64,000 bases of DNA, from NCBI GenBank assembly GCA_043820105.1, contig JBDREC010000001.1, positions 1 through 64,000 on the forward strand, in the 5' to 3' direction. This stretch comes from Pseudomonadota bacterium. Its GTDB lineage: Bacteria; Bdellovibrionota_F; JAHFAK01; JBDREC01. The translations under genes were made by a program, and so were the position numbers. How positions within the stretch are numbered: the first letter of the stretch is position 1; each line of letters begins with the position of its first letter. This document shows positions 3,567-49,773 of this stretch, in pieces. The notes under the pieces were generated by a model, which saw only the letters and a list, made by a program, of their open reading frames with translations, was not told the origin of the DNA and made no database searches.

Positions 3567-3782
3567 CCCCTTTAAAAACTAATAAATTATATCATAATAT
3601 TGATATATTTACAATGGATATTATGCTGTAATCTTGCAAAGCAATGTATTTAAATGATTATTTCCTTTTTTGACAAAAAACATGCTTCTGTCTTGACCAA
3701 AATTTATTATGTCTATATACTTTTTTGATATAAATCCCGGTTTGTTAACTGAAAAATTTTTAAGGAAAAATACGAGGAATAT

Positions 3783-5978
3783 ATGTCTCCAATTTCACTC
3801 AAAACAGTTATTAAAAGAAATAATTCAAAACAAAATTTTAAAAAAGATAAACTTGAAAATGCGATATGGACAGCTGCTAGAAATGTTGGTGGAAAAGATC
3901 AGGAGCTTGCAAAGAAGCTAACAGAAACTGTTTGCGAATATTTGGCTAAAATCTATCCGCACAATAAAGAATTAACGTCTTCTGATATTGGTTCAGCTGT
4001 TGAAAAAATACTTGTTGAACAAGGTCACTATAAGACAGTTAAAGAATTTATTTTATCCCGTGAGCATAAAAGACAAGTCTATATTAGAAAACATCAGCTT
4101 GGAGTTAAGGATGATATAGGAACTTTAGATTACAATGCTTTATTTATTCTAAAAAAACGTTATTTAATGAGAGATGAAAATGGCAAGACCATTGAAACAC
4201 CAAAGGGAATGCTGAAAAGAGTTGCTAAGTTTATAGCAAAGGCAGAAAAGAATGCTGCCCTAAGAAAGAAGTGGGAAAAAGAATTTTTTGCAATTATGGA
4301 TAACTGGGAATTCTTGCCTGGCACCAGGGTTTTAGCTAATGCTGGAGGCAAAAACCCCCAAATGGCGAATTGTTTTGTTTTTGAAATAGATGATTCAATT
4401 GAATCAATTTTCAAAACTCTTTATGAATCAAGTTTAACAAAAAAATATGGCGGTGGTTGTGGATATAACTTTTCAAGGTTAAGGCCAAAAGGCGATAGAG
4501 TTGGTAAAGATGCAGGACTAGCAGCTGGCCCTGTTGACATTATGCAAATGTTTGACACTCCAACAAGCATCTTCAGGCAGCAGGGACGCTATGAAAGCGG
4601 TAATATGGCCGTTTTAAATGTTGATCATCCAGATATTTTAGAATTTATCGCAGCCAAAAATGACGATGGAATTTTGCCAAAAACAAATATTTCAGTTGGA
4701 ATTAGTGATGCCTTTATGGAAGCTGTTAAAAAGGATACCAAGTGGGATCTGATTAATCCAAGAACAAGGGAAGTTGTTAATTCTATTAATGCTAAAGCGA
4801 TCTTTGAACTTATTGCAAATTATGCACATAGAACAGGTGATCCTGGTATTTTATTTTTAAATAGAATTAATGAAGATAATCCTGTCTTAAAACTTTTAGG
4901 TCCAATTACTGCCACAAACCCATGCGGTGAAGAACCTTTATTTCCATATGAATCATGCAACCTGGGTTATTTAAACTTACAATCCTATATTAGGATTAAT
5001 AGTAAAGGAAAGGCGGAATATGATTTTAAGCGCCTTGCTGAAGTTTGTCAGGTGGCAACAAGGTTCATGGATGATGTTATAGACGTTTCCTGGTATCCTG
5101 TTGATATGCAAACAGAAACTATTAAAAATCGTTTCAGAAGAATAGGAGTTGGAATTTGTGGATGGGCAGATGTTTTGGTTGATATGGGTTTATCTTATGA
5201 TGATTCCGAAGCCTTTGTCCTTGCTGAAAAAATTATGAAAACTATCGGTGATTCCTGTCATAAGGCTTCAATGGATCTTGGAGTTGAAAAGGGTCCTTTT
5301 GGTTATGTTAAATATTCTTCCTGGGCAAATTCAAAAACCAAACCAAGAAATATTGCAACAAATACAATACCTCCAAGCTCAAGTAATGCTGTTATTTTCA
5401 ATACCTCTTTTGGTATTGAACCTTATTTTGCACTAGCCTTTCATCAAAATGTCTTAGGTGGTATGAGGATAGAAAATATTTGTTATAAGCTCGTAGAAGT
5501 ACTAAAAAGAGAAGGCATTGAGGTTGATAATTTATTTGAAAGAATTTTCGAAGCTCATGGCAGCATAAAAGATATTCAGGAAATACCAGCTAAGATTAAA
5601 AAACTTTTCCTAACAGCCCATGAAATTCATTGGCGCGATCACATTCGAATGCAATCAGCCTGGCAAAAGCATAATGATGGAGCTATTACCAAAACTATTA
5701 ACATGTCTTCAAGGGCTTCTGTTATTGATTTTGAAAGAGCATATTTTATGGCTTGGGAATCTGGGTGCAAGGGTATTACTCTATATCGCGATCAATCAAA
5801 AGCAGATCAGGTTATTGAGTTTGGAAAGAAAAATGAAGCCCCAGTTAAACCAAAGCACATAACAAGGCAAAAGAAGTTAAGAGCTGGAGATAAATGCCCT
5901 GAGTGTGATCATATCTTGGTTGCAAATGAGGGCTGTATTAAATGCATGAACTGTTCTTTTAGTTTGTGTGAATTATAG
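3783..5978 (+). CDS. nrdJ: Adenosylcobalamin-dependent (class II) ribonucleotide reductase with N-terminal ATP cone and C-terminal Zn ribbon
   Basis: VIKRN ATP cone; ANCFV, TNPCGE, SCNLG catalytic motifs; KTIN, GCKGITLYRD; C-terminal CPEC...EGCIKCMNC; no adjacent beta-subunit gene. Confidence 0.9.
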   Translation: MSPISLKTVIKRNNSKQNFKKDKLENAIWTAARNVGGKDQELAKKLTETVCEYLAKIYPHNKELTSSDIGSAVEKILVEQGHYKTVKEFILSREHKRQVYIRKHQLGVKDDIGTLDYNALFILKKRYLMRDENGKTIETPKGMLKRVAKFIAKAEKNAALRKKWEKEFFAIMDNWEFLPGTRVLANAGGKNPQMANCFVFEIDDSIESIFKTLYESSLTKKYGGGCGYNFSRLRPKGDRVGKDAGLAAGPVDIMQMFDTPTSIFRQQGRYESGNMAVLNVDHPDILEFIAAKNDDGILPKTNISVGISDAFMEAVKKDTKWDLINPRTREVVNSINAKAIFELIANYAHRTGDPGILFLNRINEDNPVLKLLGPITATNPCGEEPLFPYESCNLGYLNLQSYIRINSKGKAEYDFKRLAEVCQVATRFMDDVIDVSWYPVDMQTETIKNRFRRIGVGICGWADVLVDMGLSYDDSEAFVLAEKIMKTIGDSCHKASMDLGVEKGPFGYVKYSSWANSKTKPRNIATNTIPPSSSNAVIFNTSFGIEPYFALAFHQNVLGGMRIENICYKLVEVLKREGIEVDNLFERIFEAHGSIKDIQEIPAKIKKLFLTAHEIHWRDHIRMQSAWQKHNDGAITKTINMSSRASVIDFERAYFMAWESGCKGITLYRDQSKADQVIEFGKKNEAPVKPKHITRQKKLRAGDKCPECDHILVANEGCIKCMNCSFSLCEL

Positions 5979-7644
5979 TTTTCTTGCCGGACTTACGATT
6001 AAATAAAAATATTGTAATGAATAAAAAAATCGTAATTGTTGCTGAAAACCAGGTGTTATAAATAAAGCAGTAAATAACTTTATCTTCAATTATATATGCA
6101 ACTAACATTATTAAAAACAAAGACATTAGCATTATTTTTCCTTTTGTGCTTTCAATCCAATTAAAAAAGATAAGAGGTAGTCCCAAAAGACCTGCGTAAT
6201 AATACCGCACCGTACTGAATAAAAGGAAAAACAATGTAAAACCAAATAGGGTTATAAAGCTTACGTCATCCATATATCTTGAAATTTTTATCAGGTAAAT
6301 GATGAAAAACAATATGAATAAAAAATATACATGTTTCAACGAAAAATATAAATACAAGGGTTTTTTGAATTTATTTTGCCTTGGTTCATAATCAAGTTGT
6401 TTGGCTGATTTGTGAAATTCTTTTGGAAAAATGAAGTTATAAATAAATCCAATTCTTCCTGAGGCCATTCTTCCTGAGTTTATTTTCATTTGATGAACAA
6501 AACCGGTCCAATTTTCAAAGCCGCGCCCAACTGTAAGGCTTAGGCAAAAAAGAATAATAATAGTGAGCATTGTTGAGATTAAAAAACGCCTATATTTGCG
6601 AACAACTAATTTTTTTTCATGTATGATTTTATAAATATATTTAATGCAAATTCCAATGATAAAGAAGATTGGGAAAATTATTAACATGGTTGATAATGAG
6701 ATTAATATTCCAGCTAAGCTATATTTATTAAGTTTTAATAAAGAAATTCCAGCCACTAAAGCAGAAATCCAAAAATACCTTAAAAAGGCACCTCCAAGTA
6801 AATAGGAATCAGGTACATTGATCCAAAAGAAAATAATAAAAAGCAGTCCAATTTTCCAATCAAATGCATAAAGCACCAAAATAAACATTATTAGTACCAT
6901 GACAAGATTAAGTAAGCTTAACATGGTCATGTTGAAAAAGTTTACAGGCACAAGGTTTGAAAGAGTTGAGGCAAAGAAATTGTATACAGGCGTTCCGTTG
7001 TAACCATGATCAATAAACCTTCTTTGCCAACCTCTCTTTCCGTGCCAGGAATGATAAATTTTTATATCTTTTCTAAATTCATTCCATCTTTCTTTGCTAA
7101 ATACATTTTTGCAGAAAGTTTTTGCTTCATTATTTAAAAACTTTGAGGTTTTTTTAACTTGGTTTATTTTTAGGTTACGTACATATTTAGGAATATCTAA
7201 TTTTAATTCATCTAAAGCAATTAGCGAACAAATATAATGATTTTCATAGCCCAATTCAAAAAAATATTTTGGTCCTAAATAGTAATGAAAAGTATCACCT
7301 GCATCAAAGTATTTGTCTCGAGTTATACCATATCGATAGAGTGTAATAAAGGATGAAAAAATAGTTAATAAAATTAAACTTATAAATAATATTTTTTCAA
7401 ACCAAGCCCTTTTTATAAACAAAGATAGAAAAAGTAATAAGATTACCAGGGCTGAAACATATAACAGACAATCACTTAAATCACTTTTTGATATTTTATC
7501 GTCATTTATTTGATAATCATATATCTGTAAATGTCCAACACTTTGAATTGAACGATTTTGATTAGATTTGTTTGAAATTATTAAAATTAATGTGAGTAAA
7601 AATGTGATCAATAGAATTAATATGGGAATAGTTTTTTTGTTCAT
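5959..7644 (-). CDS. Polytopic membrane protein, probable GT-C fold glycosyltransferase (GT87-like)
   Basis: Many hydrophobic helices; loop motifs DTFHYYLGPKYF and DHGYNGTP; start moved to ATG 7644 (track gives 7743); overlaps the nrdJ 3' end by 20 bp. Confidence 0.55.
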   Translation of the reverse strand: MNKKTIPILILLITFLLTLILIISNKSNQNRSIQSVGHLQIYDYQINDDKISKSDLSDCLLYVSALVILLLFLSLFIKRAWFEKILFISLILLTIFSSFITLYRYGITRDKYFDAGDTFHYYLGPKYFFELGYENHYICSLIALDELKLDIPKYVRNLKINQVKKTSKFLNNEAKTFCKNVFSKERWNEFRKDIKIYHSWHGKRGWQRRFIDHGYNGTPVYNFFASTLSNLVPVNFFNMTMLSLLNLVMVLIMFILVLYAFDWKIGLLFIIFFWINVPDSYLLGGAFLRYFWISALVAGISLLKLNKYSLAGILISLSTMLIIFPIFFIIGICIKYIYKIIHEKKLVVRKYRRFLISTMLTIIILFCLSLTVGRGFENWTGFVHQMKINSGRMASGRIGFIYNFIFPKEFHKSAKQLDYEPRQNKFKKPLYLYFSLKHVYFLFILFFIIYLIKISRYMDDVSFITLFGFTLFFLLFSTVRYYYAGLLGLPLIFFNWIESTKGKIMLMSLFLIMLVAYIIEDKVIYCFIYNTWFSATITIFLFITIFLFNRKSGKKTIIHTN

Positions 7645-38621: not shown

Positions 38622-40784
38622 ATGAATTCTTTAATTAAAATAATATCTATTTTAGGTTTAAATCTGATTCTAATATTATTTGCTGTTAATGAAATTAAAG
38701 CTTCTGATTTAGATCGTGCCTGCAGGGCATGCAAGGATACAAAACCTTCCCAAAATCAATGCTGCCATAATGCCTTAAGTGATATGGGATTTTTTGGCGA
38801 CAGCTTGGACTTTGTCGAATATGAAGTGTTATGTAAGGATGTAGATATAACAATAAGAAGTATAGATCCTGATGCATGTGAAAATAGAAACCTTGATTTA
38901 AAAGACAGAGACACTGTCAGTGACCTAAGGTGGTGCCTGATTGACGGTGTTATCAAAGCCAGTGAAGATAATATAGAAGGAATTAAAGCAGCTCCAAAAG
39001 CTTTAAAAGAAATGGGAATATTGTTAGGTGAAGCAAACCTTGGCTTATTTAGACGAGTTGGAAGAGTTGGAAAAGCTGCTTTTTCACCAAAGAAAACTGT
39101 TAAAGAAGAACTGTCAGAAATATATTCTGAAGAAAAAGACCGATTAATTAAAACAAATGAAAAACTTGATGATTTTGTAGCTAATTTAGGTGAAATGGTC
39201 AGCGAATTCAATAAGGACTATGACTGCCTAACTCCAGAAAGAAAAGTCATCATGATGTGCAATGTCCTGGGATATCTAGAGCTAGAAGTAATGCTAGCAC
39301 TTGCAACTTCTGGAGTTGGTTTTGTAGCTAAAACATCAAAACTTGGATTTGAAGTACAACATGCCATATCCCAGGCAGCCCATGGCATGGGGCTTGTAGC
39401 TTCTACTGGATCAAAAGTCAGAAGAACTACATATGTAGCAGAAAAAATAGTTGATAAAACAACAGACTCAACAGAAGATGCGCTATCTAAAGCTGCAAGA
39501 AAAGCACCAAGTTCCTCAGATGGCAAAACACGCACATCAACCAAAGGAAGAAAAAGATATGAACCTGTTGAATCTTTCGCTTCAGATGCAGAAAGATTAG
39601 CTGAGGCAAGAAGAATTATTGGAAAAGACCTTACACCAGAACAAATAGATGCAATCCAAAGAGCTCATGCTGTTCCTTCAAAAACATATCCAATTGATCC
39701 ACATGGAAAGGCAGCACAAGCAAAAAAAGGAATCTTAAGACAACATTTTTCACATGAAGAAGCTATGAATTTAATGGATAGAGGGGTGGCGGGTGCTCCA
39801 TCAAGAAGAAAGTTAACAGCAGCTGAAATTGAACTGGGTCTTAAATCTGGAATATCAGAAGGAGATATTCCAGCTTATGGAGGCAGAGGACCTGGTGGAG
39901 GAGATTATGGTGGAGGAGCACCTGATGTAACAACCTCTGGTCCCAGTGAAAGACAGTTAAGAAGAATGCAAGCCGAAGGCAGAGAAGAAGCATTAAGATC
40001 CATGCAAGAAACTTCAAATCCAGGGTCTGCCCAAGGACCGGATTCAAGGTTGGCAGGTACAGACATTCACAGTGGCCCAGATAAAGGCCCAAGAGATGTC
40101 ACAACAGCAGGACCTTCAGAAGCTAAAAATCGAGCCACCCAAGCAGCTAGAAGGGGCACAGAATATGACGCTCCAGAATCAAGAGGAAGCGGTCAAGGCA
40201 CTGAATTTGATAGAGAACTAGATGGTGTAACAATACATGGCTCTGAAGCTAGAGAAGCAAGAAGAGTTGCACAAGCTGGTCCTTCTGAAGCTAAAAATAG
40301 AGCCACCCAAGCAGCTAGAAGGGGCACAGAATATGACGCTCCAGAATCAAGAGGAAGCGGTCAAGGCACTGAATTTGATAGAGAACTAGATGGTGTAACA
40401 ATACATGGTTCTGAAGTTAGAGAGCCTAGGCATGTCGTTCACGGAAAATCACCTGAGCCTGTCCCAACACCACAAGAGCTCGCAACACCAGAACCAGCAT
40501 GGAAATCTACAAGTAGACCAGACTATGCTACTAATCCTGACGGAAGCAGACCAAGAACAAGAAGAGGACAAGGAATGATCAAAGAAACTCCAAAAAATCC
40601 TAGAATCGATGAAATTCAATCCAGGAAAGCTGTAATAGACAAAGAAATTATAAAGAAAAAAGCACATAGATTACATGCCCCTGATGACGTTGAAGCCCAA
40701 AGGATTCAAAGAGAAATTGATTCCTTAACTGAACAAAGGTCTCAACTTGATGCGGAGTTTGAACAAATATCTGATGCTGCATAA
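38622..40784 (+). CDS. Secreted protein: Cys-rich N-terminus, helical/hydrophobic core, 56-aa repeats, coiled-coil C-terminus (polymorphic-effector-like)
   Basis: AAGGAG RBS; signal peptide; hydrophobic LEVMLALATSGVGFVA segment; internal duplication. Confidence 0.75.
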   Translation: MNSLIKIISILGLNLILILFAVNEIKASDLDRACRACKDTKPSQNQCCHNALSDMGFFGDSLDFVEYEVLCKDVDITIRSIDPDACENRNLDLKDRDTVSDLRWCLIDGVIKASEDNIEGIKAAPKALKEMGILLGEANLGLFRRVGRVGKAAFSPKKTVKEELSEIYSEEKDRLIKTNEKLDDFVANLGEMVSEFNKDYDCLTPERKVIMMCNVLGYLELEVMLALATSGVGFVAKTSKLGFEVQHAISQAAHGMGLVASTGSKVRRTTYVAEKIVDKTTDSTEDALSKAARKAPSSSDGKTRTSTKGRKRYEPVESFASDAERLAEARRIIGKDLTPEQIDAIQRAHAVPSKTYPIDPHGKAAQAKKGILRQHFSHEEAMNLMDRGVAGAPSRRKLTAAEIELGLKSGISEGDIPAYGGRGPGGGDYGGGAPDVTTSGPSERQLRRMQAEGREEALRSMQETSNPGSAQGPDSRLAGTDIHSGPDKGPRDVTTAGPSEAKNRATQAARRGTEYDAPESRGSGQGTEFDRELDGVTIHGSEAREARRVAQAGPSEAKNRATQAARRGTEYDAPESRGSGQGTEFDRELDGVTIHGSEVREPRHVVHGKSPEPVPTPQELATPEPAWKSTSRPDYATNPDGSRPRTRRGQGMIKETPKNPRIDEIQSRKAVIDKEIIKKKAHRLHAPDDVEAQRIQREIDSLTEQRSQLDAEFEQISDAA
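40113..40423 (+). repeat. 168-bp-period intragenic direct repeat
   Basis: Units start at 40113 and 40281 (PSEAKNRATQAARRGTEYDAPESRGSGQGTEFDRELDGVTIHGSE); a diverged 57-aa unit precedes them. Confidence 0.95.
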
Positions 40785-40977: not shown

Positions 40978-41265
40978 GTGAAATATGGCATCCAACTTCT
41001 GACCAAAAGCACCCACCCTCAAGATGGCAGAAAAAGAACAAGAAGAGGCCGAGGCAAAGCTACTAGAAAACCAAATCCCAGAGTCGCGGAACTTGAAATT
41101 GAAATAGAAGCTTTACAAACTCAAAAAAACGATTTGCACATAGAGTTATATGATTCAAAAAAAAGTTCTGAAGTGGAAAGTCGAATAAAAAAACAATTGG
41201 ACGAAACATTTGAAATGATATCAAGCCATCATAGAGAATTAGCTAAAATCAACCCACCAAACTAG
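40978..41265 (+). CDS. Orphan module homologous to the C-terminus of 38622-40784
   Basis: DGRKRTRRGRGKATRKPNPRVAEL versus DGSRPRTRRGQGMIKETPKNPRIDEI; shared DNA AGAACAAGAAGAGG. Confidence 0.6.
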   Translation: MKYGIQLLTKSTHPQDGRKRTRRGRGKATRKPNPRVAELEIEIEALQTQKNDLHIELYDSKKSSEVESRIKKQLDETFEMISSHHRELAKINPPN

Positions 41266-41905
41266 CCAATTTATGTACCGATAAAACAATTCCCTCCTTT
41301 CTTTTAATCGAAATCTCGGGCTTGCGAACAAGCTGCATAATTGGAATATTTAATAATTTATGATAGTAAAGGCTGGCAGAGGTGAATTTAACATCACTTA
41401 GTTTTGCTTCAATTAGAAAAAGAGGTTTATTATCTTTTAACAATACAAAATCAACCTCTCTCCTGCTCTGATCTCTTAGATAGTTTAGCGAATAATCTCC
41501 CAAAGTCTGTTCATTCATGGAACTTACCCACTTCAAAAGCAGCAAAGCAATCATATTCTCAAATCTCTTGCCAGCGTCATCAGCAACAATAAAATAAAAA
41601 AAATACAGCTTTTTTTCTTTTTTAATAATTTTTTTTAAATCCTTAAAATAGGGACAGATTTCAAAGGAAATAAAGACTTGATTTAAAGCTTTTATGTACC
41701 TTTTCATAGTAGAGTGAGCACAATTTAAATCCTCTCTCAAAGCATTTATAGATAAAGGAGAACCAATTCTTTGAGGTAAAATTATTAAAAGATCTCGTAT
41801 CATATCAAGAGATTCCAGTTTTGTAAGATCTCTGATGTCTTCTTCTGTAACCCTAATCTTGTATTGCTGTCACCATCTTTTTGCTTTATTTTCAGTCTTA
41901 TCTCT
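41249..41905 (-). pseudogene. Truncated AAA_14/DUF4143 ATPase gene
   Basis: C-terminal half only (EDIRDL, GSPLSINAL, FENMIA, REVDFVL, IEAK); in-frame TGA at 41870-41872; no Walker A upstream. Confidence 0.75.
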
Positions 41906-42193: not shown

Positions 42194-42727
42194 ATGATGC
42201 TTAGTAATAATATGATTTCAAAGGCTTTTATTCGCTTGGATGTGATTTTAGACGAAAAGGTTAACTTATTAATTGGTGGTGGGGCTGCTTTATTAATTTT
42301 GGATATTATGCCAATTTCTACTATGGATGTTGATGCTATACCATTTAAATCAATTATTGGACCAGAGGACTTGAAAAAATATAGCCAAGCTGTTGCAAAA
42401 GAGCTGGATTTACCCGCAGACTGGTTGAATGAATACTTTTATCAGTTTACTCATTGTCTTCCAGATGATTATGGTGATAGATTAAAAGAAGTGTTTAGTG
42501 GTGAAAAGTTAACCTGTTTTTGCTTAAGTCCAACGGATATTGCAATCATGAAGTTTTTTGCACATAGAGGAAAGGATCAGAGTCATTTAAGATATTTAAT
42601 AAAAAACAAGCACCTTGATCTTGATTTTATTGATAATTATCTTGATGAAATGGTTGAAAAAAATCATCCTGGGGCAGAAGACGCACTTGCTTGTTTTCAT
42701 GATTTGCTTGAAGCCTTGGGGATATAA
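42194..42727 (+). CDS. Nucleotidyltransferase-fold protein (DUF6036/AbiEii-like)
   Basis: IGGGAAL, STMDVDA (GG...DxD), DWLN, KFFAHRGKD. Confidence 0.7.
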   Translation: MMLSNNMISKAFIRLDVILDEKVNLLIGGGAALLILDIMPISTMDVDAIPFKSIIGPEDLKKYSQAVAKELDLPADWLNEYFYQFTHCLPDDYGDRLKEVFSGEKLTCFCLSPTDIAIMKFFAHRGKDQSHLRYLIKNKHLDLDFIDNYLDEMVEKNHPGAEDALACFHDLLEALGI

Positions 42728-42730
42728 TTT

Positions 42731-43438
42731 ATGCAATGCTATCCTTTATCACAAGACGAACTTACATCTCTTTACTTTCAACTCAATAAAAATGGTGCTT
42801 TATGTTGGGGAGAGGATACTGGTTATTTTACCAATATTTCCTATGAAAAGATATTAGCAATTGCAATTGAAGCTTCCAGGTGGGATATTCGGCTTTTATG
42901 CATTTTGACAGAGCATTTTGCTAATAAATATAAAAATATAAAGCCCTTTATTTTGAGACAATTTATTGGTGAAAATAAATATCCATTTATTATTGGAGTT
43001 ATTAAAGAATTTTCATTGCTTATTTCTCAAAATGAGGACTTAAAAGATTTTTTTAAACTTCTACTAAAGAACATAAGCCCTTCGAATAACTACCTTTTAT
43101 TCAATGTTGGCCTAAGCTTTTCGCAAAAACAGATAAAATACGAGACTTATAAATCACTAAATGAATATAAAAAATGGGGGTTTCTTTGTTCGGAATTGCC
43201 AATTTTAAAGCATTTAATTAAAAATAATGATAATTTTCATCATTATGCACCAAATGAACGCAAAATTACCCTTAAAAATCTTTTTGAAACTAAAAATCCA
43301 ATTTCAATAAATGATTATTTAGAAGCAATTAATTATTCAATAAGCAGGCAACATGCTAGGCTGGATTTAATAAATAGCGAATTTATTATTTCTAAAGGCA
43401 AAACAAAGTCTTGCTTATATTATTTGAAAAACAAATAA
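42731..43438 (+). CDS. Hypothetical partner of the nucleotidyltransferase, possible C-terminal winged HTH (antitoxin-like)
   Basis: 3-bp gap after the NTase gene; C-terminal ISRQHARLDL...GKTKSCLYYL. Confidence 0.55.
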   Translation: MQCYPLSQDELTSLYFQLNKNGALCWGEDTGYFTNISYEKILAIAIEASRWDIRLLCILTEHFANKYKNIKPFILRQFIGENKYPFIIGVIKEFSLLISQNEDLKDFFKLLLKNISPSNNYLLFNVGLSFSQKQIKYETYKSLNEYKKWGFLCSELPILKHLIKNNDNFHHYAPNERKITLKNLFETKNPISINDYLEAINYSISRQHARLDLINSEFIISKGKTKSCLYYLKNK

Positions 43439-43528
43439 AATTTTCAAAATAATAAAATTGTTTTTTTTATTATAAATGGTATTATTAATTAAGTTATAAT
43501 ATTATTAAATTTAAAATTAGGAAATGTT

Positions 43529-43672
43529 ATGCCAAAAAGAATTAATGCAAAAGAACCTAAGGAAAAAAATGATATGAGTAGCTATGGCAGTCATAAGACT
43601 ACAGCGCCTTTGCAGACTAAAGACCCTCAGCAAAAAACTGCTAAAAAGCCTGCTTCCAGAACAAAAAAATAA
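43529..43672 (+). CDS. 47-aa small ORF, candidate RiPP precursor MPKRINAKEPKEKNDMSSYGSHKTTAPLQTKDPQQKTAKKPASRTKK
   Basis: Not in the ORF track; AGGA RBS; ends 44 bp before the radical SAM start; more GC-rich than its flanks. Confidence 0.65.
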   Translation: MPKRINAKEPKEKNDMSSYGSHKTTAPLQTKDPQQKTAKKPASRTKK

Positions 43673-43716
43673 AGATTTAATTGGCTTTTTTTCTTAAAAA
43701 TTAATACTTCTAACTT

Positions 43717-46137
43717 ATGCTATTATTATGTCCACCATCTGATCCATATAATAATGAATTCAATATTTCCCATTATTATCTCGGTGCTTTTTTAAAATCA
43801 AAAAGTATATCAGATTTTAATTGTTTAGAAATATCTTATGATGATACAATTTCAGATACTGTTTCCAGAATAAATAAAACCAAAGAAAAAATAATTGGCT
43901 TTACTTGCTATGATTCAAATTATTTAAAAATAAAAATATTAGCTAAAGAAATAAAAAAACATATAAAAAATTCCATAATTATTTTGGGTGGTCCAACAGC
44001 TATTGCGATTGGAGATTTAATTCTTAAGGATTGTCCTTATATTGATCTTGCTATTAGATCTGAATGTGAATCAATTCTTCCAATTCTTTTTCACAAGATT
44101 TTGTTGTCAAAGGCAAAGAAAATCACTTATGATAAAGTGCCCGGTATTTCATATAGGAAAAACAATGAAGTGCTAAGCACTAAAAAGGGCGCACTAATAA
44201 AAAATCTTGATAGCTTGCCCTCTCCTTATTTGTTAAAACTTGTGCCTGTTAAAGAATTAATTCATAATAATATGATTTTTGGAATATCACTTTCAAGGGG
44301 GTGTGTATACAAATGTGATTTTTGTAATTATTCTACAATTTATAATCATACAGTGCGCTTCTATTCGATTGATAGAATTATAAAAGAATTAAAATATGTT
44401 CAGAGAATCTGTAAGAAAGAAAACAGAGCAGCTTTAGTTTTTTTTATTGAAGATAATTTTTGCTTAAATTTAAATAGAGCTAAAGAAATATTAAAAACAA
44501 TTATTAAGAAAAATCTTAATCAATATCTTTACTATTATGCTCACACTAGACCTGAAAATTTAAGTTATGAAATATTAGATTTGTTTAAAAAAGCTAATTT
44601 TAAGAGCGTAAATATTGGCCTGGAAAGTGCTTCAATTAAAGTTTTAAAACAAATCAATAAAACATTATCAAAAAATAATAAATATGATTTTTCAAAGGAA
44701 AAAGAATATGTCCTTACAACTCAAAAGGCTCTGTTGTATTCCAAAAAAATTGGTCTTAAATTAATTGTTAGTTTAATTTTTGGTTTAGAAGCTGATTCAA
44801 TTGCTGGTGGAAAGCAAACACTAGCATTTATTAAAAAACAAGATCACATGGAAATATATGGGCATAATATTTATTCTATTTTATCTGGGGCTAATAATTT
44901 AAAAAAAGAGGAATTTGAACATAAATTTTTTTATGATAGAATTTTTAATCCAAAAGTATTGCCTCTTATTCCTAGTTATAAAATTCATCCTAGTTTTTTT
45001 CCACGCTTACCTAATACCGACATTTTTCGAAGTTTAGAAAGAAGATTTTTTAAGTATAATATCGCAATGGAACAGTACTCAGTTAATATCATTTTTCAGA
45101 AAAATTTTGATCAGATTCTTGGGTGGCTTTTTACTTGGTTTAAAGTTGGAACTAATTATTGGTTTGATGTCAGCAACAATAAGGAATCGCTTGAATTGGG
45201 AAAAGAACTTAATGAATTTCCTATATTTTTAAATGAATATTTTGTGAGCAAGAAATTTTTTCAAGCCTCAATGGAAACTTCAGAAAAAGTTTGTCATAAA
45301 GCTACACCCTTTAGCTCGATTTCAAATTTAAAATTTACTAATTATAATAAGCAAATTCAAATTATAAAGCATAAAGGCTTCAAGCGGACCGCAGATAATA
45401 CTTCCTTTATTTTTTCTATATCAAATGAGGTAGATAATAGAGCATTAAGTGAAATAATGCAAAGACTCCTGATTGATGGGAAATTCATTTTTGAAACATC
45501 TATTACTTCTAATTATTGGAGCTTTTTATTGAATGCTTGTATGTTTTACGCAGATGTATGTCCATCTATGAAATTAAATAATTTGCTTATTGATAAAAAT
45601 GCGAAAATTAGAACCTGTAATGGAGGAAAGCATTTAGCTTCAATACCGATTGACATTGATGAATTAAAACAAACAGTTCAAAAAGAAACTAAGAAATTGC
45701 ATGCAAGGCGAGATTGCAAGTTATGTAGAATATTTCCAATATGTCCAAAGTGCCTCAGCACACATTTTATGTCTGAAGCTAAATATTGTAAATTTATGAA
45801 AAGCACTCCATATTTAAAATTGTTTTTTCAAACCTGGTACTTTGTTTCTGAAAATATCCACATAGATAATTATTGTAATAAAAAGAAAAAAATAAAACTT
45901 CATCTTTTTTTATCTTATTCTCACGCTAAGCTTTTTGATAATTTAAAGTTTCGGATTAAAGAGTTTAAGCATATTAAAAAAAGCTTTTCGATAATAGTTG
46001 TTAAAGACAAAACTTATATGTTTATTCCTGGACAAGAGCAGAAATATTATGAAATTGATAAAAGTGTTTATAAAGATATTGTACTTAAAAATTTTAATAA
46101 AAAAGATCTCTTAGGTTTAGATTTGTTTTATCAATAA
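43717..46137 (+). CDS. Cobalamin-binding radical SAM enzyme with C-terminal SPASM-like Cys cluster
   Basis: B12-binding domain (IIGFTCY, ILGGPTA, ECE); SRGCVYKCDFC; EDNF, IGLES; C-terminal CMFYADVC...RTC...CKLCRIFPICPKC...YC. Confidence 0.9.
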   Translation: MLLLCPPSDPYNNEFNISHYYLGAFLKSKSISDFNCLEISYDDTISDTVSRINKTKEKIIGFTCYDSNYLKIKILAKEIKKHIKNSIIILGGPTAIAIGDLILKDCPYIDLAIRSECESILPILFHKILLSKAKKITYDKVPGISYRKNNEVLSTKKGALIKNLDSLPSPYLLKLVPVKELIHNNMIFGISLSRGCVYKCDFCNYSTIYNHTVRFYSIDRIIKELKYVQRICKKENRAALVFFIEDNFCLNLNRAKEILKTIIKKNLNQYLYYYAHTRPENLSYEILDLFKKANFKSVNIGLESASIKVLKQINKTLSKNNKYDFSKEKEYVLTTQKALLYSKKIGLKLIVSLIFGLEADSIAGGKQTLAFIKKQDHMEIYGHNIYSILSGANNLKKEEFEHKFFYDRIFNPKVLPLIPSYKIHPSFFPRLPNTDIFRSLERRFFKYNIAMEQYSVNIIFQKNFDQILGWLFTWFKVGTNYWFDVSNNKESLELGKELNEFPIFLNEYFVSKKFFQASMETSEKVCHKATPFSSISNLKFTNYNKQIQIIKHKGFKRTADNTSFIFSISNEVDNRALSEIMQRLLIDGKFIFETSITSNYWSFLLNACMFYADVCPSMKLNNLLIDKNAKIRTCNGGKHLASIPIDIDELKQTVQKETKKLHARRDCKLCRIFPICPKCLSTHFMSEAKYCKFMKSTPYLKLFFQTWYFVSENIHIDNYCNKKKKIKLHLFLSYSHAKLFDNLKFRIKEFKHIKKSFSIIVVKDKTYMFIPGQEQKYYEIDKSVYKDIVLKNFNKKDLLGLDLFYQ

Positions 46138-46168: not shown

Positions 46169-47812
46169 CTATGCCTCAGGTTCACTGGGCTCTTCATCTT
46201 CACTGTCATCTGCTTGCTCTTCAATAAAAGACATTTCTCTGTATTGTAGATAAAAATCAATATGAGCACGGGCTCCATCTTCTTTTCCTTCAAAGCCCAT
46301 TCCAATAATTGCAAAGTCAAAACTAGACCCTTGTGCAAGGCCTTTGGCTAAAATATCCATTTCAATGTCTTGAGGTGTAACTTCAACATCTCTTGATTCT
46401 GGCCATTTTCCACCACTTGAATCTGTTCCAATATAATACTGTGTAAAGGAATTATCTAAAAAACTATTAACTGGATTATCAAGGACAGTTTTTCTATGTA
46501 ATTTTATTAAACCAATGGCAGCGTTATCTTGTGTGTCTTCAGCTTGGGCGCCACCACCATTTCCCGATCTTGCTCTAAATCCTGTGACAATTTTTGTTGA
46601 AGAAGCAGAAGGTGCTTCACTTTTATCAATAAAAGTTTCTGGGCCAGCATTGCCTTCAGAATCATCCCAAGTTTCATCACTATTTCCAACAAGAGTACAT
46701 CCTCTTTCTTCTGTTTCATATTCTCCTGAACCATTCATATCATTGCCATATGAATCTTGATCACCAGAGTCAGCTCCTCTGTATATTATTCCTGTTGATC
46801 CAAAAGTTCCATCAGATTCGATTATAACATATCTAACGTGAACACATTGTATATCTCTTGAATCATGATCAGTTGTGTCATTTCCAGCATTTTCTGTTCC
46901 ATGAGTTTCAATTGCAATTCCCTGGATAACTGAATTGTAAAGGACATTTTCTTCTGCTGCTTCCTCATCATCATGAATGAAGATATTTGTATTTGCTTGA
47001 GCATGAGAATAACTGGTGACAGGTTCGGTTTCTATATTATCAAACATATCAAACATAGCTTCTGTATCTCCATCACAATCTTTTTGATCATGAGCTGTTT
47101 CAGTATCGTAATTCCAGCAAGAGCTTTTCCATGTATAATCTTCATGAAGGTCAAAGTGACCTGCTTGGACTCCTTCACCTTCTTGCTCGCAATTAGCTAA
47201 ACATGCGCTTTCATCAAACAATGGATCTTCAGCGCCTGTACAATCGCAAGTTGCAATGCAAGCAAGCGCTGTCCCAAAACCTGCTGTATATTGTTCCTGC
47301 ATTTCTTCATATCTATCTGTTTCTGGAATTGAAGCAGCATCTTCAGGATCAGTTCCATAGTATTCTTCAATTACATCATATACATTATCATCATCAGAAT
47401 CTGCCATCGATTCTCCGTAACCGTTATCAACACCACTTAAAAGTTCAATAAATTCTTCTGAACATACACCAAATTCAGCAGCTGCATCACAGAGGTCAAC
47501 ATAGATTGCTGAATAGAGGTCATCAGCGCAAATAGCATCAACAAGTGAACCCCAGGTGTCAGACCAGCAAGCCATTCTTTCTGTATCTAAACATTCAAAA
47601 TCTTCACCACAGGTTGAGTATGCTGTTGTTAGACATTCTGTTAAACTTATTTCTGCGTCTTCTACACCTGTGATAATTCCACCAAAGCCAGATCCATTTA
47701 AAATTTCATCTTCAATGGCTGGTGTTACTTCTTTGCGATCTTTCTTTGCGCAGGAATTAAGCATTGCCGTGGACAGGCAAATTATTGAAAATATTATGAT
47801 ATATCGTTTCAT
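46169..47812 (-). CDS. Acidic Cys-rich lipoprotein
   Basis: True start ATG 47812 (MKRYIIIFSIICLSTAMLNSC) with AAGGGG RBS; DSDDDNVYD..EEYYGTDP repeat. Confidence 0.8.
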   Translation of the reverse strand: MKRYIIIFSIICLSTAMLNSCAKKDRKEVTPAIEDEILNGSGFGGIITGVEDAEISLTECLTTAYSTCGEDFECLDTERMACWSDTWGSLVDAICADDLYSAIYVDLCDAAAEFGVCSEEFIELLSGVDNGYGESMADSDDDNVYDVIEEYYGTDPEDAASIPETDRYEEMQEQYTAGFGTALACIATCDCTGAEDPLFDESACLANCEQEGEGVQAGHFDLHEDYTWKSSCWNYDTETAHDQKDCDGDTEAMFDMFDNIETEPVTSYSHAQANTNIFIHDDEEAAEENVLYNSVIQGIAIETHGTENAGNDTTDHDSRDIQCVHVRYVIIESDGTFGSTGIIYRGADSGDQDSYGNDMNGSGEYETEERGCTLVGNSDETWDDSEGNAGPETFIDKSEAPSASSTKIVTGFRARSGNGGGAQAEDTQDNAAIGLIKLHRKTVLDNPVNSFLDNSFTQYYIGTDSSGGKWPESRDVEVTPQDIEMDILAKGLAQGSSFDFAIIGMGFEGKEDGARAHIDFYLQYREMSFIEEQADDSEDEEPSEPEA

Positions 47813-47865
47813 AATTTTGACCCCTTGAAAAAATGTATAAAAATTCAGTTTCAATGGGATATAGA

Positions 47866-47880
47866 GCAAAAGGTGTGCCA
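47866..47880 (-). promoter_or_regulatory. Sigma-54 promoter
   Basis: TGGCAC-ACCTT-TTGC, 54 bp upstream of ATG 47812. Confidence 0.8.
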
Positions 47881-47888
47881 AGTGGGAA

Positions 47889-48116: not shown

Positions 48117-48155
48117 TGCACTTGTTCCCATGTTCTCTTGCGCTCTTGTTCTCTT
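48117..48155. repeat. Octamer array (CTTGTTCT/CTTGCGCT)
   Basis: cttgttcc catgttct cttgcgct cttgttct; abuts the stop codon of 48154-49773. Confidence 0.8.
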
Positions 48156-49773
48156 ATTTCGTAAACCCTTCTTCATAAACCGGAGTATCTGGTAACGTAT
48201 ATCCACGATTCTGAATTGTTTCCCAAATTGTTGCTGTGCCATCACCATCAACATCTGTTGCTGCATATAGGTCAAACTCCAGACCTGTTGTTATTGGATC
48301 TGTTACTATTATTACATCATTTGAATCTAATATGTCATCAAGGTTTCTATCATATATAAAATCTCCACCTGCATATAAACAGGTATTTGTTGGGGCATAT
48401 GTAATATTTGAAGCAGCAGCATTTGTTGGTTCATAAATTCCTGTTTGTGGATTATAGGTAATATGCTGTCTTTGAGCGTATTGTAAATAGTTGCTAAAAT
48501 TACTTCCTGGTGCCATCCAATTGCAGAAAAATCCTATAAGTGAGCCATCAGCATCTTCAACATCTTCACCAAATCCATACCAGGCTTCGCCAGAAATTAT
48601 TCCATCCTCATTTGCTTCATTTAAGCCAAGTAGTAGTGTTCGTGTAGAACCATCACCTTTGCCTGCTTGCCAAGACAAGACATATTCACCTGATAAAAAG
48701 TCATCACTATCTGTATCTGGATTAAAGTTCATGGTTGCTATTGTAAAATAATCAAGCCAACTTGAATCTTTATCAACTAAACCATCATTATCAATAAGCC
48801 AAGTGTCAATGCCACTTCCAATAGCGGAAAGTGCTTCAACATGAAGTTCTGATGCAGATTTTTTGTTATAAACAACAGATCCATTAACACTTATATCACC
48901 TGTTGCTTTTAGGTTGTAAAAAGAATCACCATTAACCATATAGGTTAAGCGTCCAGAAAAATCATCATCTGTATCACCTTCTTTATGGCTCAAATAAATT
49001 ACTATATGTGTTTGTTCAGAATTTGAATCTGTGTAATCAAAATCTAATTTATAATTCCAGACTTCATAATCAGCTCCATCATTTCCATTAGCATCAACAG
49101 TATGTTCGATTGTGGCTTCATTGACAGTTACATCTGAAATTGATAAATCATTTGTTAAATCTACTGTTGAATTAAGAGCCGGTTCCCATGCACCATTTTG
49201 GTCAGCTTCATAGATCATGTAGGCAAATAAAGCAAAAGATGCAAAAGATATTTCACTGAGCATTTCAAGTTTTTTATTTAACTGGGCAATAGCGCAAGCT
49301 TCATCTGTGTCAGGTTCAGTTTCAAGCCATATTCCAAGGTCTCCAAGGAGTAAAGTTCCATCAGAATCATCATATTCGTGATTTTCATATATTAATTCTG
49401 GTCCATAACAATCAGCGTCTGTAAAACTAGGTTCAAAGTTTTGAAGGATTGTAGAAAAATTATATTGGCTTGCCTGTCCAAGTAAAATGTATTGTATGGT
49501 TTCAACTTGATACTCATATTCAAAAAGTTCAACAACTAAGTTATTAACAACAGTTTCAGATTTAAGAGCTGCGGAAACAGCTTCTTTTTTTTGACCAGGT
49601 GAGGTGACAGCAACCCCTTCAGGAAAGGCTCCACTTATTTCAGCAAGAGAATATGAAGGGGATGGTCCATCAGTGCCTGAATCTGCTACACTTGTATCGT
49701 CAGAACTCAAACAAGCAGAAAGTATTAGGATTAAAATTGAAAAAAATAAAAATGTTATACATGTTCGTTTCAT
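48154..49773 (-). CDS. Acidic lipoprotein of unknown function
   Basis: GGAGG RBS; lipobox LSAC; CYGP, GDLGIW, WQAG, FFCNW motifs. Confidence 0.8.
   Translation of the reverse strand: MKRTCITFLFFSILILILSACLSSDDTSVADSGTDGPSPSYSLAEISGAFPEGVAVTSPGQKKEAVSAALKSETVVNNLVVELFEYEYQVETIQYILLGQASQYNFSTILQNFEPSFTDADCYGPELIYENHEYDDSDGTLLLGDLGIWLETEPDTDEACAIAQLNKKLEMLSEISFASFALFAYMIYEADQNGAWEPALNSTVDLTNDLSISDVTVNEATIEHTVDANGNDGADYEVWNYKLDFDYTDSNSEQTHIVIYLSHKEGDTDDDFSGRLTYMVNGDSFYNLKATGDISVNGSVVYNKKSASELHVEALSAIGSGIDTWLIDNDGLVDKDSSWLDYFTIATMNFNPDTDSDDFLSGEYVLSWQAGKGDGSTRTLLLGLNEANEDGIISGEAWYGFGEDVEDADGSLIGFFCNWMAPGSNFSNYLQYAQRQHITYNPQTGIYEPTNAAASNITYAPTNTCLYAGGDFIYDRNLDDILDSNDVIIVTDPITTGLEFDLYAATDVDGDGTATIWETIQNRGYTLPDTPVYEEGFTK

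Follow-up and report, generated by a model that had tools for sequence, protein, structure and literature searches.

Does a 47-aa open reading frame (ORF) that lies directly ahead of a large radical S-adenosylmethionine (SAM) enzyme gene encode the substrate of that enzyme, and do the two genes form a new system for a ribosomally made peptide with post-translational modifications (RiPP)? The question is raised by a stretch of 64,000 nucleotides, referred to here as the window, from contig JBDREC010000001.1 of a Bdellovibrionota_F genome (assembly GCA_043820105.1). A sequence-only reading of the window had proposed such a system from the short ORF (43529..43672, + strand) and the gene for an 806-aa enzyme (43717..46137, + strand). 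We consider it fairly likely that the enzyme is an intact, extremely diverged member of a multi-module radical SAM family and that it forms, with an orphan ORF, a genome-specific cassette. According to that proposal, the enzyme methylates or cross-links the S-S-Y-G-S-H-K-T-T stretch of the 47-aa peptide, which would thus be the precursor in a new RiPP system of two genes; this is possible but appears doubtful.

The enzyme joins, in one chain, a B12-type radical SAM core to a SPASM-like region with eight Cys residues. Its gene is intact, and no Shine-Dalgarno 4-mer was found ahead of it. The N-terminal cobalamin-binding domain that had been claimed is borne out by a cobalamin-binding-type region at residues 38-123 (43828..44085, + strand), which scores 28.5 bits against the Pfam B12-binding profile (PF02310). 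This profile matches all 32 aligned full-length members of the family at E<=1, with a best value of 4.7e-22. The radical SAM core follows at residues 190-316 (44284..44664, + strand), where Pfam Radical_SAM (PF04055) gives 49.9 bits against a cut-off of 29.5. Its CxxxCxxC motif, also reported earlier, consists of C196, C200 and C203 (nt 44302-44325) and is invariant in 32/32 aligned full-length members. In comparison with the B12 region of solved enzymes, the family profile aligns to CysS (51-401), to OxsB and to TokK (28-230). Eighteen B12-radical SAM families of NCBIfam match the window enzyme, all far under their cut-offs and all within the first ~390 residues. The best of these matches to the N-terminal half are ApyD, BchE, TIGR04013, HpnJ, KedN5 and TIGR03975. 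The equivalog cut-off of ApyD (NF050148) is not reached (93.2 vs 750 bits), and residues 38-370 correspond to positions 55-361 of the 645 in that profile.

The C-terminal Cys pattern was found exactly as the sequence-only reading gave it (C608-x6-C615...C634...C667-xx-C670-x5-C676-xx-C679...C691; 45538..45789, + strand). All eight Cys residues are invariant in the 32 aligned full-length relatives; across 82 sequences, seven are invariant and C691 is conserved in at least 90%. The RadicalSAM.org paper (PMC9477430) gives the conservation of seven or eight Cys C-terminal to an alpha/beta barrel as the hallmark of SPASM domains, and C608, C615, C634, C667, C670, C676, C679 and C691 are conserved here in the same manner.

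The C-terminal half was also modelled. The AlphaFold2 model of residues 400-806 has a predicted local distance difference test (pLDDT) value of 76.3 overall and of 91-97 over the Cys region, and a separate model of residues 590-806 has a value of 78.6. When the 407-aa C-terminal model was compared with 48,161 chains by VIA-align, the ten best rows were all SPASM/twitch-type radical SAM entries, with 144-235 residues aligned and a root-mean-square deviation (rmsd) of 4.3-5.0. These were TigE (8vpo; Z 7.0, 235 residues aligned, rmsd 5.0), anSME (4k36; Z 7.0), SuiB (5v1q; Z 6.5), 5wgg (Z 6.4), ChlB (9gm3; Z 6.3), PqqE (6c8v; Z 6.1) and MoaA (1tv7; Z 5.4), with BlsE (7vob; Z 5.4), BtrN (4m7s; Z 5.1) and SkfB (6efn; Z 4.8) as the lowest of the ten. 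In the structural alignments, which cover model residues 54-384, the alpha/beta region that links the radical SAM core to the eight-Cys stretch therefore lies over the barrel of these SPASM/twitch enzymes. This barrel-superposing region is without a CxxxCxxC motif. The protein may have arisen when a B12-type core became fused to a degenerate enzyme of SPASM type.

Behind the Cys region lies a tail that resembles PqqD, the fold of RiPP recognition elements (RREs). The tails of 20 of the 32 members, namely those with 60-95 aa after the Cys region, align with five stand-alone PqqD proteins from family loci (hhalign 93.3%, E 2.6e-7, 72 columns); the window enzyme is not among these 20. The Pfam PqqD profile matches 3/32 members at E<=1. 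In the window enzyme the tail (45985..46134, + strand) comes to ~50 aa and forms three strands and one helix in both models, compared with three strands and three helices in the PqqD/RRE module.

Several results weigh against this multi-module description. The PF02310 score of the window enzyme is just below the 32.1-bit cut-off, and the SPASM profile TIGR04085 reaches only a sub-threshold score on residues 618-686 (E 0.02, 15.3 bits vs a cut-off of 27), with Pfam SPASM (PF13186) matching one of the 32 members (E 0.047). Foldseek found no match in the PDB at E<=1e-3 with either C-terminal model, and phmmer with residues 590-806 found none at E<=10 among PDB sequences. The VIA-align Z values of 4.8-7.0 lie below 8, the level that the tool regards as safe, and lower values may reflect a common arrangement. 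The 217-aa model of the SPASM-like region plus tail gave only rows with Z<5, on the tail. The RRE-like module of the window enzyme is regarded as truncated because only ~50 aa remain after the Cys region. We therefore refer to the eight-Cys domain as SPASM-like and not as a proven SPASM domain, and we make this assignment because ten structural rows agree, not because of any single Z.

The combination of B12-binding, radical SAM and SPASM-like regions in one chain, which the sequence-only reading had singled out as atypical, is real but is not unique to this locus, since 80 distinct full-length relatives were found. A search with the 806-aa protein against 5.8 billion proteins returned 81 matches at E<=1e-3 among 7,999 scored candidates. 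Of these matches, 32 (self included) cover at least 77% of the query, and the best non-self match is 28% identical across 98% of it. The C-terminal 407 residues, searched against 1.84 billion representatives, matched 80 proteins at E<=1e-3 (self included). Among the 79 non-self matches, 54 are 700-892 aa long, and the best matched stretches are mostly around the eight-Cys region. By these sequence comparisons the 806-aa protein is placed as a very divergent member (<=28% identity) of a broad uncharacterised family of ~700-830 aa. Record titles distribute this family over Asgard archaea, methanogens and several bacterial phyla. A FastTree phylogeny was built from the 80 distinct full-length enzymes, and neither its deep branching nor the placement of the window enzyme is reliable. 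The window enzyme forms the longest branch of this tree (2.13 changes per column) and has no settled position, which is a point against the preferred reading. At least six further B12-radical SAM-like genes are present on other contigs of the same genome (C43, C72, C53, C29, C4 and C88; tblastn E 1e-26 to 4e-11, with matches in the N-terminal half only), and the organism is thus a heavy user of the B12-radical SAM class.

We also compared the gene neighbourhoods of the family, using 78 loci from species-representative genomes, 73 from metagenomes and 8 from whole genomes of relatives of the window organism. We accepted 87 ORFs from these loci as full-length genes of the family and took small ORFs as those of 25-130 aa within 1.5 kb. 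A recurrent small protein was found beside the enzymes. In this protein a helical module (approximately h..K[IL]..h...G....E[IV]...) precedes a C-terminus that varies and in many cases is aromatic or hydrophobic (...HWVTVG, ...WWVTLGG, ...VWEIVVVYTGTK, ...AIYGYVVREAMS). A hidden Markov model (HMM) of this leader-type module converged on 30 ORFs in 28/158 loci, at a distance from the enzyme of 8-160 bp when upstream and 1-33 bp when downstream. These partners have no match in Pfam or NCBIfam, and their public labels are mostly "hypothetical protein" or absent, apart from three Joint Genome Institute (JGI) entries with other automatic labels. A leader-type partner on the same strand within 1 kb accompanies 19 of the 80 distinct full-length enzymes. 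For 12 further enzymes the end of the contig is too near to judge. The partner label clusters on the tree in a few clades (6 changes vs 17.4 expected with shuffled labels).

The number of partner-bearing enzymes is at least 19, as several other partners escaped the HMM. In locus L102, two related helical small ORFs (3657-3863 and 6520-6771), both ending in ELDIC, flank the enzyme and were missed by the HMM. A conserved 64-aa ORF lies ~150-460 bp downstream of the enzyme in three other loci (L092:6814-7008, L095:5554-5748 and L097:3627-3821). These 64-mers end in ...CAYGPGPCGIC or ...CANGPGPCGIC and match the NHLP clan weakly (NF038399, E ~0.01-0.03). Stand-alone PqqD genes occur at L004, L109 and L098. 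Asgard loci show the same enzyme family with the leader-type kind of partner (L024, L025, L030, L031 and L040), and in L024, L025, L030 and L037 the arrangement is enzyme, small tail-conserved protein and TPR gene, the last of these downstream. In addition, two loci (L021:8467-8610 and L135:6763-6906, both on the - strand) each encode, in convergent orientation to the family enzyme, a Lys-rich peptide of 47 aa that bears a YxxP motif; an S26-type signal peptidase-like gene follows in both, and in L021 an HprK/ScmC-like gene comes after that.

These contexts make it quite likely that the family consists of peptide or protein maturases. Because no member has been studied, gene context alone points to this role, and part of that context points elsewhere. 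For 49 of the 80 enzymes, each flanked by 500 bp or more on either side, no leader-type partner was detected. In three loci from metagenome-assembled genomes (L003:357-4705, L005:3276-9115 and L015:805-4709), the enzyme gene lies within an rnf operon, between an Rnf-Nqr membrane subunit/rnfA (192 aa) and an RnfB-like 4Fe-4S protein (~260 aa), a setting that is not RiPP-like. No small partner gene was detected in these three loci, and the operon may hint at a protein substrate or a link to electron transfer. Glycosyltransferase neighbours at L013, L018 and L028 are likewise not RiPP-like. On one Chloroflexota contig (L020, L022 and L023), tandem paralogues of ~750-800 aa occupy eight distinct rows of the tree, and the HMM found no small partner for them.

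Chemistry and substrate identity are in all respects what we infer from the domain order and the gene context. The chain begins with an N-terminal cobalamin-binding Rossmann region, followed by the CxxxCxxC radical SAM core, a second alpha/beta region and an eight-Cys domain of SPASM-like type. A PqqD/RRE-like tail completes the protein in most relatives and is truncated in the window enzyme. The radical SAM cluster would cleave SAM to give a 5'-deoxyadenosyl radical, and this radical would abstract hydrogen from the substrate, a peptide or small protein. The cobalamin could then donate a methyl group or mediate another cobalamin-dependent step, and two auxiliary clusters may serve as a built-in electron relay or in substrate binding. 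The most probable targets of the family would be the C-terminal parts of small proteins encoded next to the enzymes.

Whether the window contains such a small protein depends on the 47-aa ORF, a Lys-rich orphan that is a candidate substrate by position only. The sequence-only reading described this ORF accurately. An ATG ORF at 43529..43672 (+ strand) gives precisely the translation quoted there, the gap to the 806-aa ORF is 44 bp, and the reported ribosome-binding site is a Shine-Dalgarno-like AGGA at 43519..43522 (+ strand), 6 nt ahead of the ATG. Roughly half of the genome's 1,539 long ORFs that were compared have such a 4-mer ahead of them, and hence the organism makes use of Shine-Dalgarno sites. 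A TATAAT hexamer can be read directly from the sequence at 43495-43500, and a consensus promoter scan gave no full promoter there. An in-frame ATG at codon 16 would yield a 32-aa product. Between the peptide and enzyme genes the scan listed no terminator, and the fold of 43625-43720 has a z of 0.07. No riboswitch, cobalamin riboswitch included, was found in 41-47 kb with Rfam at E<=5, where the search gave two chance snoRNA-like rows only. Among public sequencing runs, no RNA run was listed for the locus, and three DNA runs from a single study have small shares (0.13, 0.09 and 0.00), which bear on neither expression nor habitat.

The 47-codon ORF could be a chance or decaying frame, the enzyme having been acquired alone and perhaps having a substrate other than a peptide, like BchE, HpnJ, AprD4 and OxsB. 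The length of the ORF is weak coding evidence because 227/5,000 shuffles (4.5%) of the 278-bp intergenic stretch produced, on either strand, an ORF with an ATG start and 47 or more codons. The frame also has no conservation by which it could be tested. Its composition is stronger coding evidence than its length. GC content is 36% inside the ORF vs 12% in the intergenic DNA on both sides, and GC at third codon positions (0.27) is below that at first (0.38) and second (0.44) positions. The product has 11 Lys and 2 Arg residues, a net charge of +9 and a Lys/Pro/Thr-rich composition with 8.5% ILMFVW; among 3,038 open frames obtained by shuffling intergenic DNA, not one has so low a hydrophobic content. 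The codon log-odds of 0.315 compare with 0.329 +/- 0.127 for genuine in-frame 47-codon chunks of the genome and exceed those of all 3,000 off-frame chunks. This test leaves the coding strand unsettled because one antisense frame scores 0.311. The Shine-Dalgarno sequence at ideal spacing also argues for a functional ORF, and the 47-aa protein is present as a called gene in a public protein collection (P0160). For the enzyme half of this alternative, the N-terminal NCBIfam scores for BchE, HpnJ, KedN5 and AprD4 are about equal to those of RiPP enzymes; the family tail resembles PqqD, a peptide-binding fold, and this argues against a non-peptide substrate. Taken as a whole, a non-functional ORF beside an enzyme acquired alone is rather improbable, and we regard the small ORF as probably a real gene.

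Granted a real gene, the peptide is the only candidate substrate in cis, and no feature of the family's partner proteins recurs in it. Position and co-acquisition favour a pairing of the peptide with the enzyme. The two genes lie on the same strand with 44 bp between them, the peptide gene has its own Shine-Dalgarno sequence and a coding-like composition, the pair makes up the genome-specific part of the locus, and in many family loci a partner gene stands 8-160 bp upstream of the enzyme. According to PMC13192836, ApyD, the best NCBIfam match of the N-terminal half, adds a methyl group to the beta-carbon of a precursor Tyr, and the window peptide has a single Tyr. The lack of common features with the partners, the truncated RRE-like tail and the lack of conservation all weigh against the pairing.

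The peptide has no homolog besides itself among 5.8 billion proteins and no paralogue in its own genome. It has no link at E<=1e-4 to any of 2,347 small ORFs beside the 87 family genes, and a relaxed BLAST against the same ORFs gave a best E of 3.6. The sequence-only reading had suggested that a pattern MPKRIN...YGxHK might recur in upstream ORFs; this check turned up nothing in common near the 87 homologous enzyme genes. The leader module is found neither in the peptide nor in any stop-to-stop frame of at least 20 aa in the 3.81-Mb genome, in which the best matches to the leader HMM (E 0.25-0.43) are inside unrelated long ORFs on other contigs. The peptide also has no YxxP motif of the kind described in PMC13381572. 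Its ILMFVW content is far from that of 30 partner proteins, which have a mean of 33% and a minimum of 26%. A likeness in the form "SSY...TAP" between the peptide and the 47-mers of L021 and L135 was treated as chance, and BLAST is blind to it. Complex prediction of the enzyme with the 47-mer scored 0.00 in both of two runs and is evidence neither way.

Since the peptide shares no feature with the partner proteins of the family, we put its link to the enzyme low: that its product is the substrate is a tentative idea at best. The role claimed for it in the sequence-only reading is not supported by comparison, given its orphan status and its lack of both the helical leader module and YxxP. The broader claim of a RiPP system fares better in one part, in that the family context points to peptide or small-protein substrates, and gains no support in the other, which concerns the window peptide. 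We consider it unlikely that a Lys-rich and nearly hydrophobe-free 47-mer is a new type of precursor that is recognised without a canonical RRE or a helical leader. If this were true, a B12-radical SAM enzyme with SPASM-type clusters would modify the 47-mer at its S-S-Y-G-S-H core, for example by C-methylation or a cross-link, and the locus, with its two genes, would represent the minimal form of a RiPP class not yet described.

The small ORF could instead be real and unrelated to the enzyme, encoding a basic disordered protein that binds, for example, nucleic acid or the ribosome, with the substrate of the enzyme encoded elsewhere or being a larger protein. The charge of the peptide and its Lys/Pro/Thr-rich composition are consistent with this, as is a pLDDT below 50 for the peptide in at least one complex run, a value that indicates an uncertain fold and is silent on binding. 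The members in rnf operons without a small partner (L003, L005 and L015) suggest in turn that part of the family may use protein substrates in trans. Against an unrelated protein of this kind, the peptide has no homolog, though housekeeping small proteins are usually conserved, and its ORF lies within a low-GC accessory segment. Such a separate function is rather unlikely.

The surroundings of the two genes fit the preferred reading of an enzyme and an orphan ORF that form a genome-specific cassette. GC content is 24-29% over ~43.2-46.2 kb vs ~35% in the flanks, and no full-length relative of the enzyme was found in two genomes of the same order and one of the same class. Directly ahead of the peptide ORF lie a DUF6036 nucleotidyltransferase gene (42194-42727) and the gene of a 235-aa protein with no known family (42731-43438), which together form a two-gene module (42194..43438, + strand) outside the candidate system. 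We consider this pair a separate module because it recurs in a genome of the same order (G002) with a convergent gene directly behind it. The 235-aa protein is 49% identical there, and neither the peptide nor the enzyme is present. In locus L163 (4802-6036, - strand), a nucleotidyltransferase and a 234-aa protein abut as in the window, so that the pair is found in two genomes of the order. The Atlas look-alike clusters of the pair are labelled mostly Bdellovibrionota and Myxococcota, and the pair may be a toxin-antitoxin-like module. The peptide ORF and the enzyme gene are thus a genome-specific low-GC addition behind this conserved pair. Repeats in 41.0-46.6 kb were limited to AT-rich two-copy matches, and none were flanking repeats that mark an insertion.

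A further alternative is that the locus belongs to a defence or accessory island in which the enzyme has a conflict-related role. The low-GC segment would suit such an island, as would the neighbours, which include the nucleotidyltransferase pair and a 184-aa ORF at 41249-41803 (- strand). The latter corresponds to only the C-terminal half of DUF4143 ATPases (PADLOC PDC-S01) and is probably a truncated gene. The N-terminal half of the enzyme matches PADLOC PDC-M51A (E 6e-23), but it covers only the part that is generic to B12-radical SAM enzymes, and many NCBIfam families match at least as strongly. In G002, moreover, the nucleotidyltransferase pair stands without the enzyme, and a search of viral contigs, sensitive to close relatives only, turned up no relative. 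A defence role is therefore very improbable.

On its other side, the enzyme gene ends its transcription unit because the next genes, 46169-47881 and 48154-49773, run on the other strand. As the sequence-only reading had stated, no protease or exporter gene is adjacent, and none was found among the ORFs of 41-50 kb; such genes are not obligatory for RiPP clusters. The products of 46169-47881 (-) and 48154-49773 (-) are large, very acidic and Cys-containing proteins with signal- or lipoprotein-like N-termini and no Pfam family, and they are among several secreted proteins of TSP3/FG-GAP type in the window. Further upstream, 38622-40784 (+) encodes a 720-aa protein with no Pfam family, in which a segment of ~55 aa is duplicated (AGPSEAKNRATQAARRGTEYDAPESRGSGQGTEFDRELDGVTIHGSE occurs twice); it lies in a stretch of raised GC content (45-47%). 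It is followed by a 95-aa ORF (40978-41265, + strand) that resembles the C-terminal end of the 720-aa protein (RTRRG.G...KNPR...E).

In conclusion, an enzyme family that unites B12 and SPASM-type modules, and that frequently has an RRE-like tail and a conserved small partner as well, could allow chemistry that neither class carries out alone. One possibility is that methyl transfer is linked to an electron relay within the protein. The window enzyme is a far outlier of the family, and its locus shows that such an enzyme can be carried on a small cassette. As a first experimental target the locus is poor, its candidate substrate being unsupported by comparison, and L012 with its 100-aa partner, L007/L010 with a 46-mer or the Asgard loci would be better choices.

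Among the known systems with which the enzyme can be compared are the class B radical SAM methyltransferases of RiPP pathways, to which the PoyB/PoyC-type enzymes, named in PMC5682303, also belong. Like the class B RiPP methyltransferases ApyD and TIGR03975, the window enzyme has an N-terminal B12-binding region and a CxxxCxxC core, and its substrate is probably a peptide. It matches ApyD with an E of 1.3e-26 over residues 38-370 and TIGR03975 with an E of 1.9e-24 over residues 43-317. Unlike them, it scores far below their cut-offs (93 vs 750 and 86 vs 282 bits) and matches in the N-terminal half only; the eight-Cys SPASM-like domain and the PqqD-like tail of its family were seen here in none of these named families. 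A similar relation holds for the solved cobalamin-dependent radical SAM enzymes CysS (9n1b), OxsB (5ul2), TokK (7kdx), AprD4 (6fd2) and TsrM (6wte). The family profile matches these with E values of 6e-26 to 3e-9 over profile positions ~21-535, which is the N-terminal half, but the match stops before the eight-Cys region.

With the SPASM/twitch maturases anSME (4k36), TigE (8vpo), SuiB (5v1q), PqqE (6c8v) and SkfB (6efn), the enzyme shares the conserved Cys residues; its C-terminal 407 aa superpose on them at Z values below the safe level, and its family has a PqqD/RRE-like module. In contrast to these maturases, its catalytic cluster lies in a separate upstream B12-type core, and the RRE-like module of its family is C-terminal and truncated in the window protein. 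Compared with the Asgard loci of its own family, the window locus is bacterial and has neither a leader-type partner nor a TPR gene. The LPP or YxxP-leader RiPP clusters, as described in PMC13381572, resemble L021 and L135 in their YxxP 47-mers, S26-type peptidase and HprK/ScmC-like gene. The window shares with them a nucleotidyltransferase near the peptide, but one that belongs to the separate conserved pair, and it lacks a YxxP motif, an SpI peptidase, a kinase and an RRE gene. PMC9477430, PMC8950095 and PMC8326336 place B12-dependent radical SAM enzymes and those of SPASM type in two distinct subgroups, and we found no paper on a single-chain B12 plus SPASM enzyme in a full-text literature search, whose coverage mostly leaves out subscription journals. 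Overall, the architecture of this family joins kinds of enzyme that are already known.

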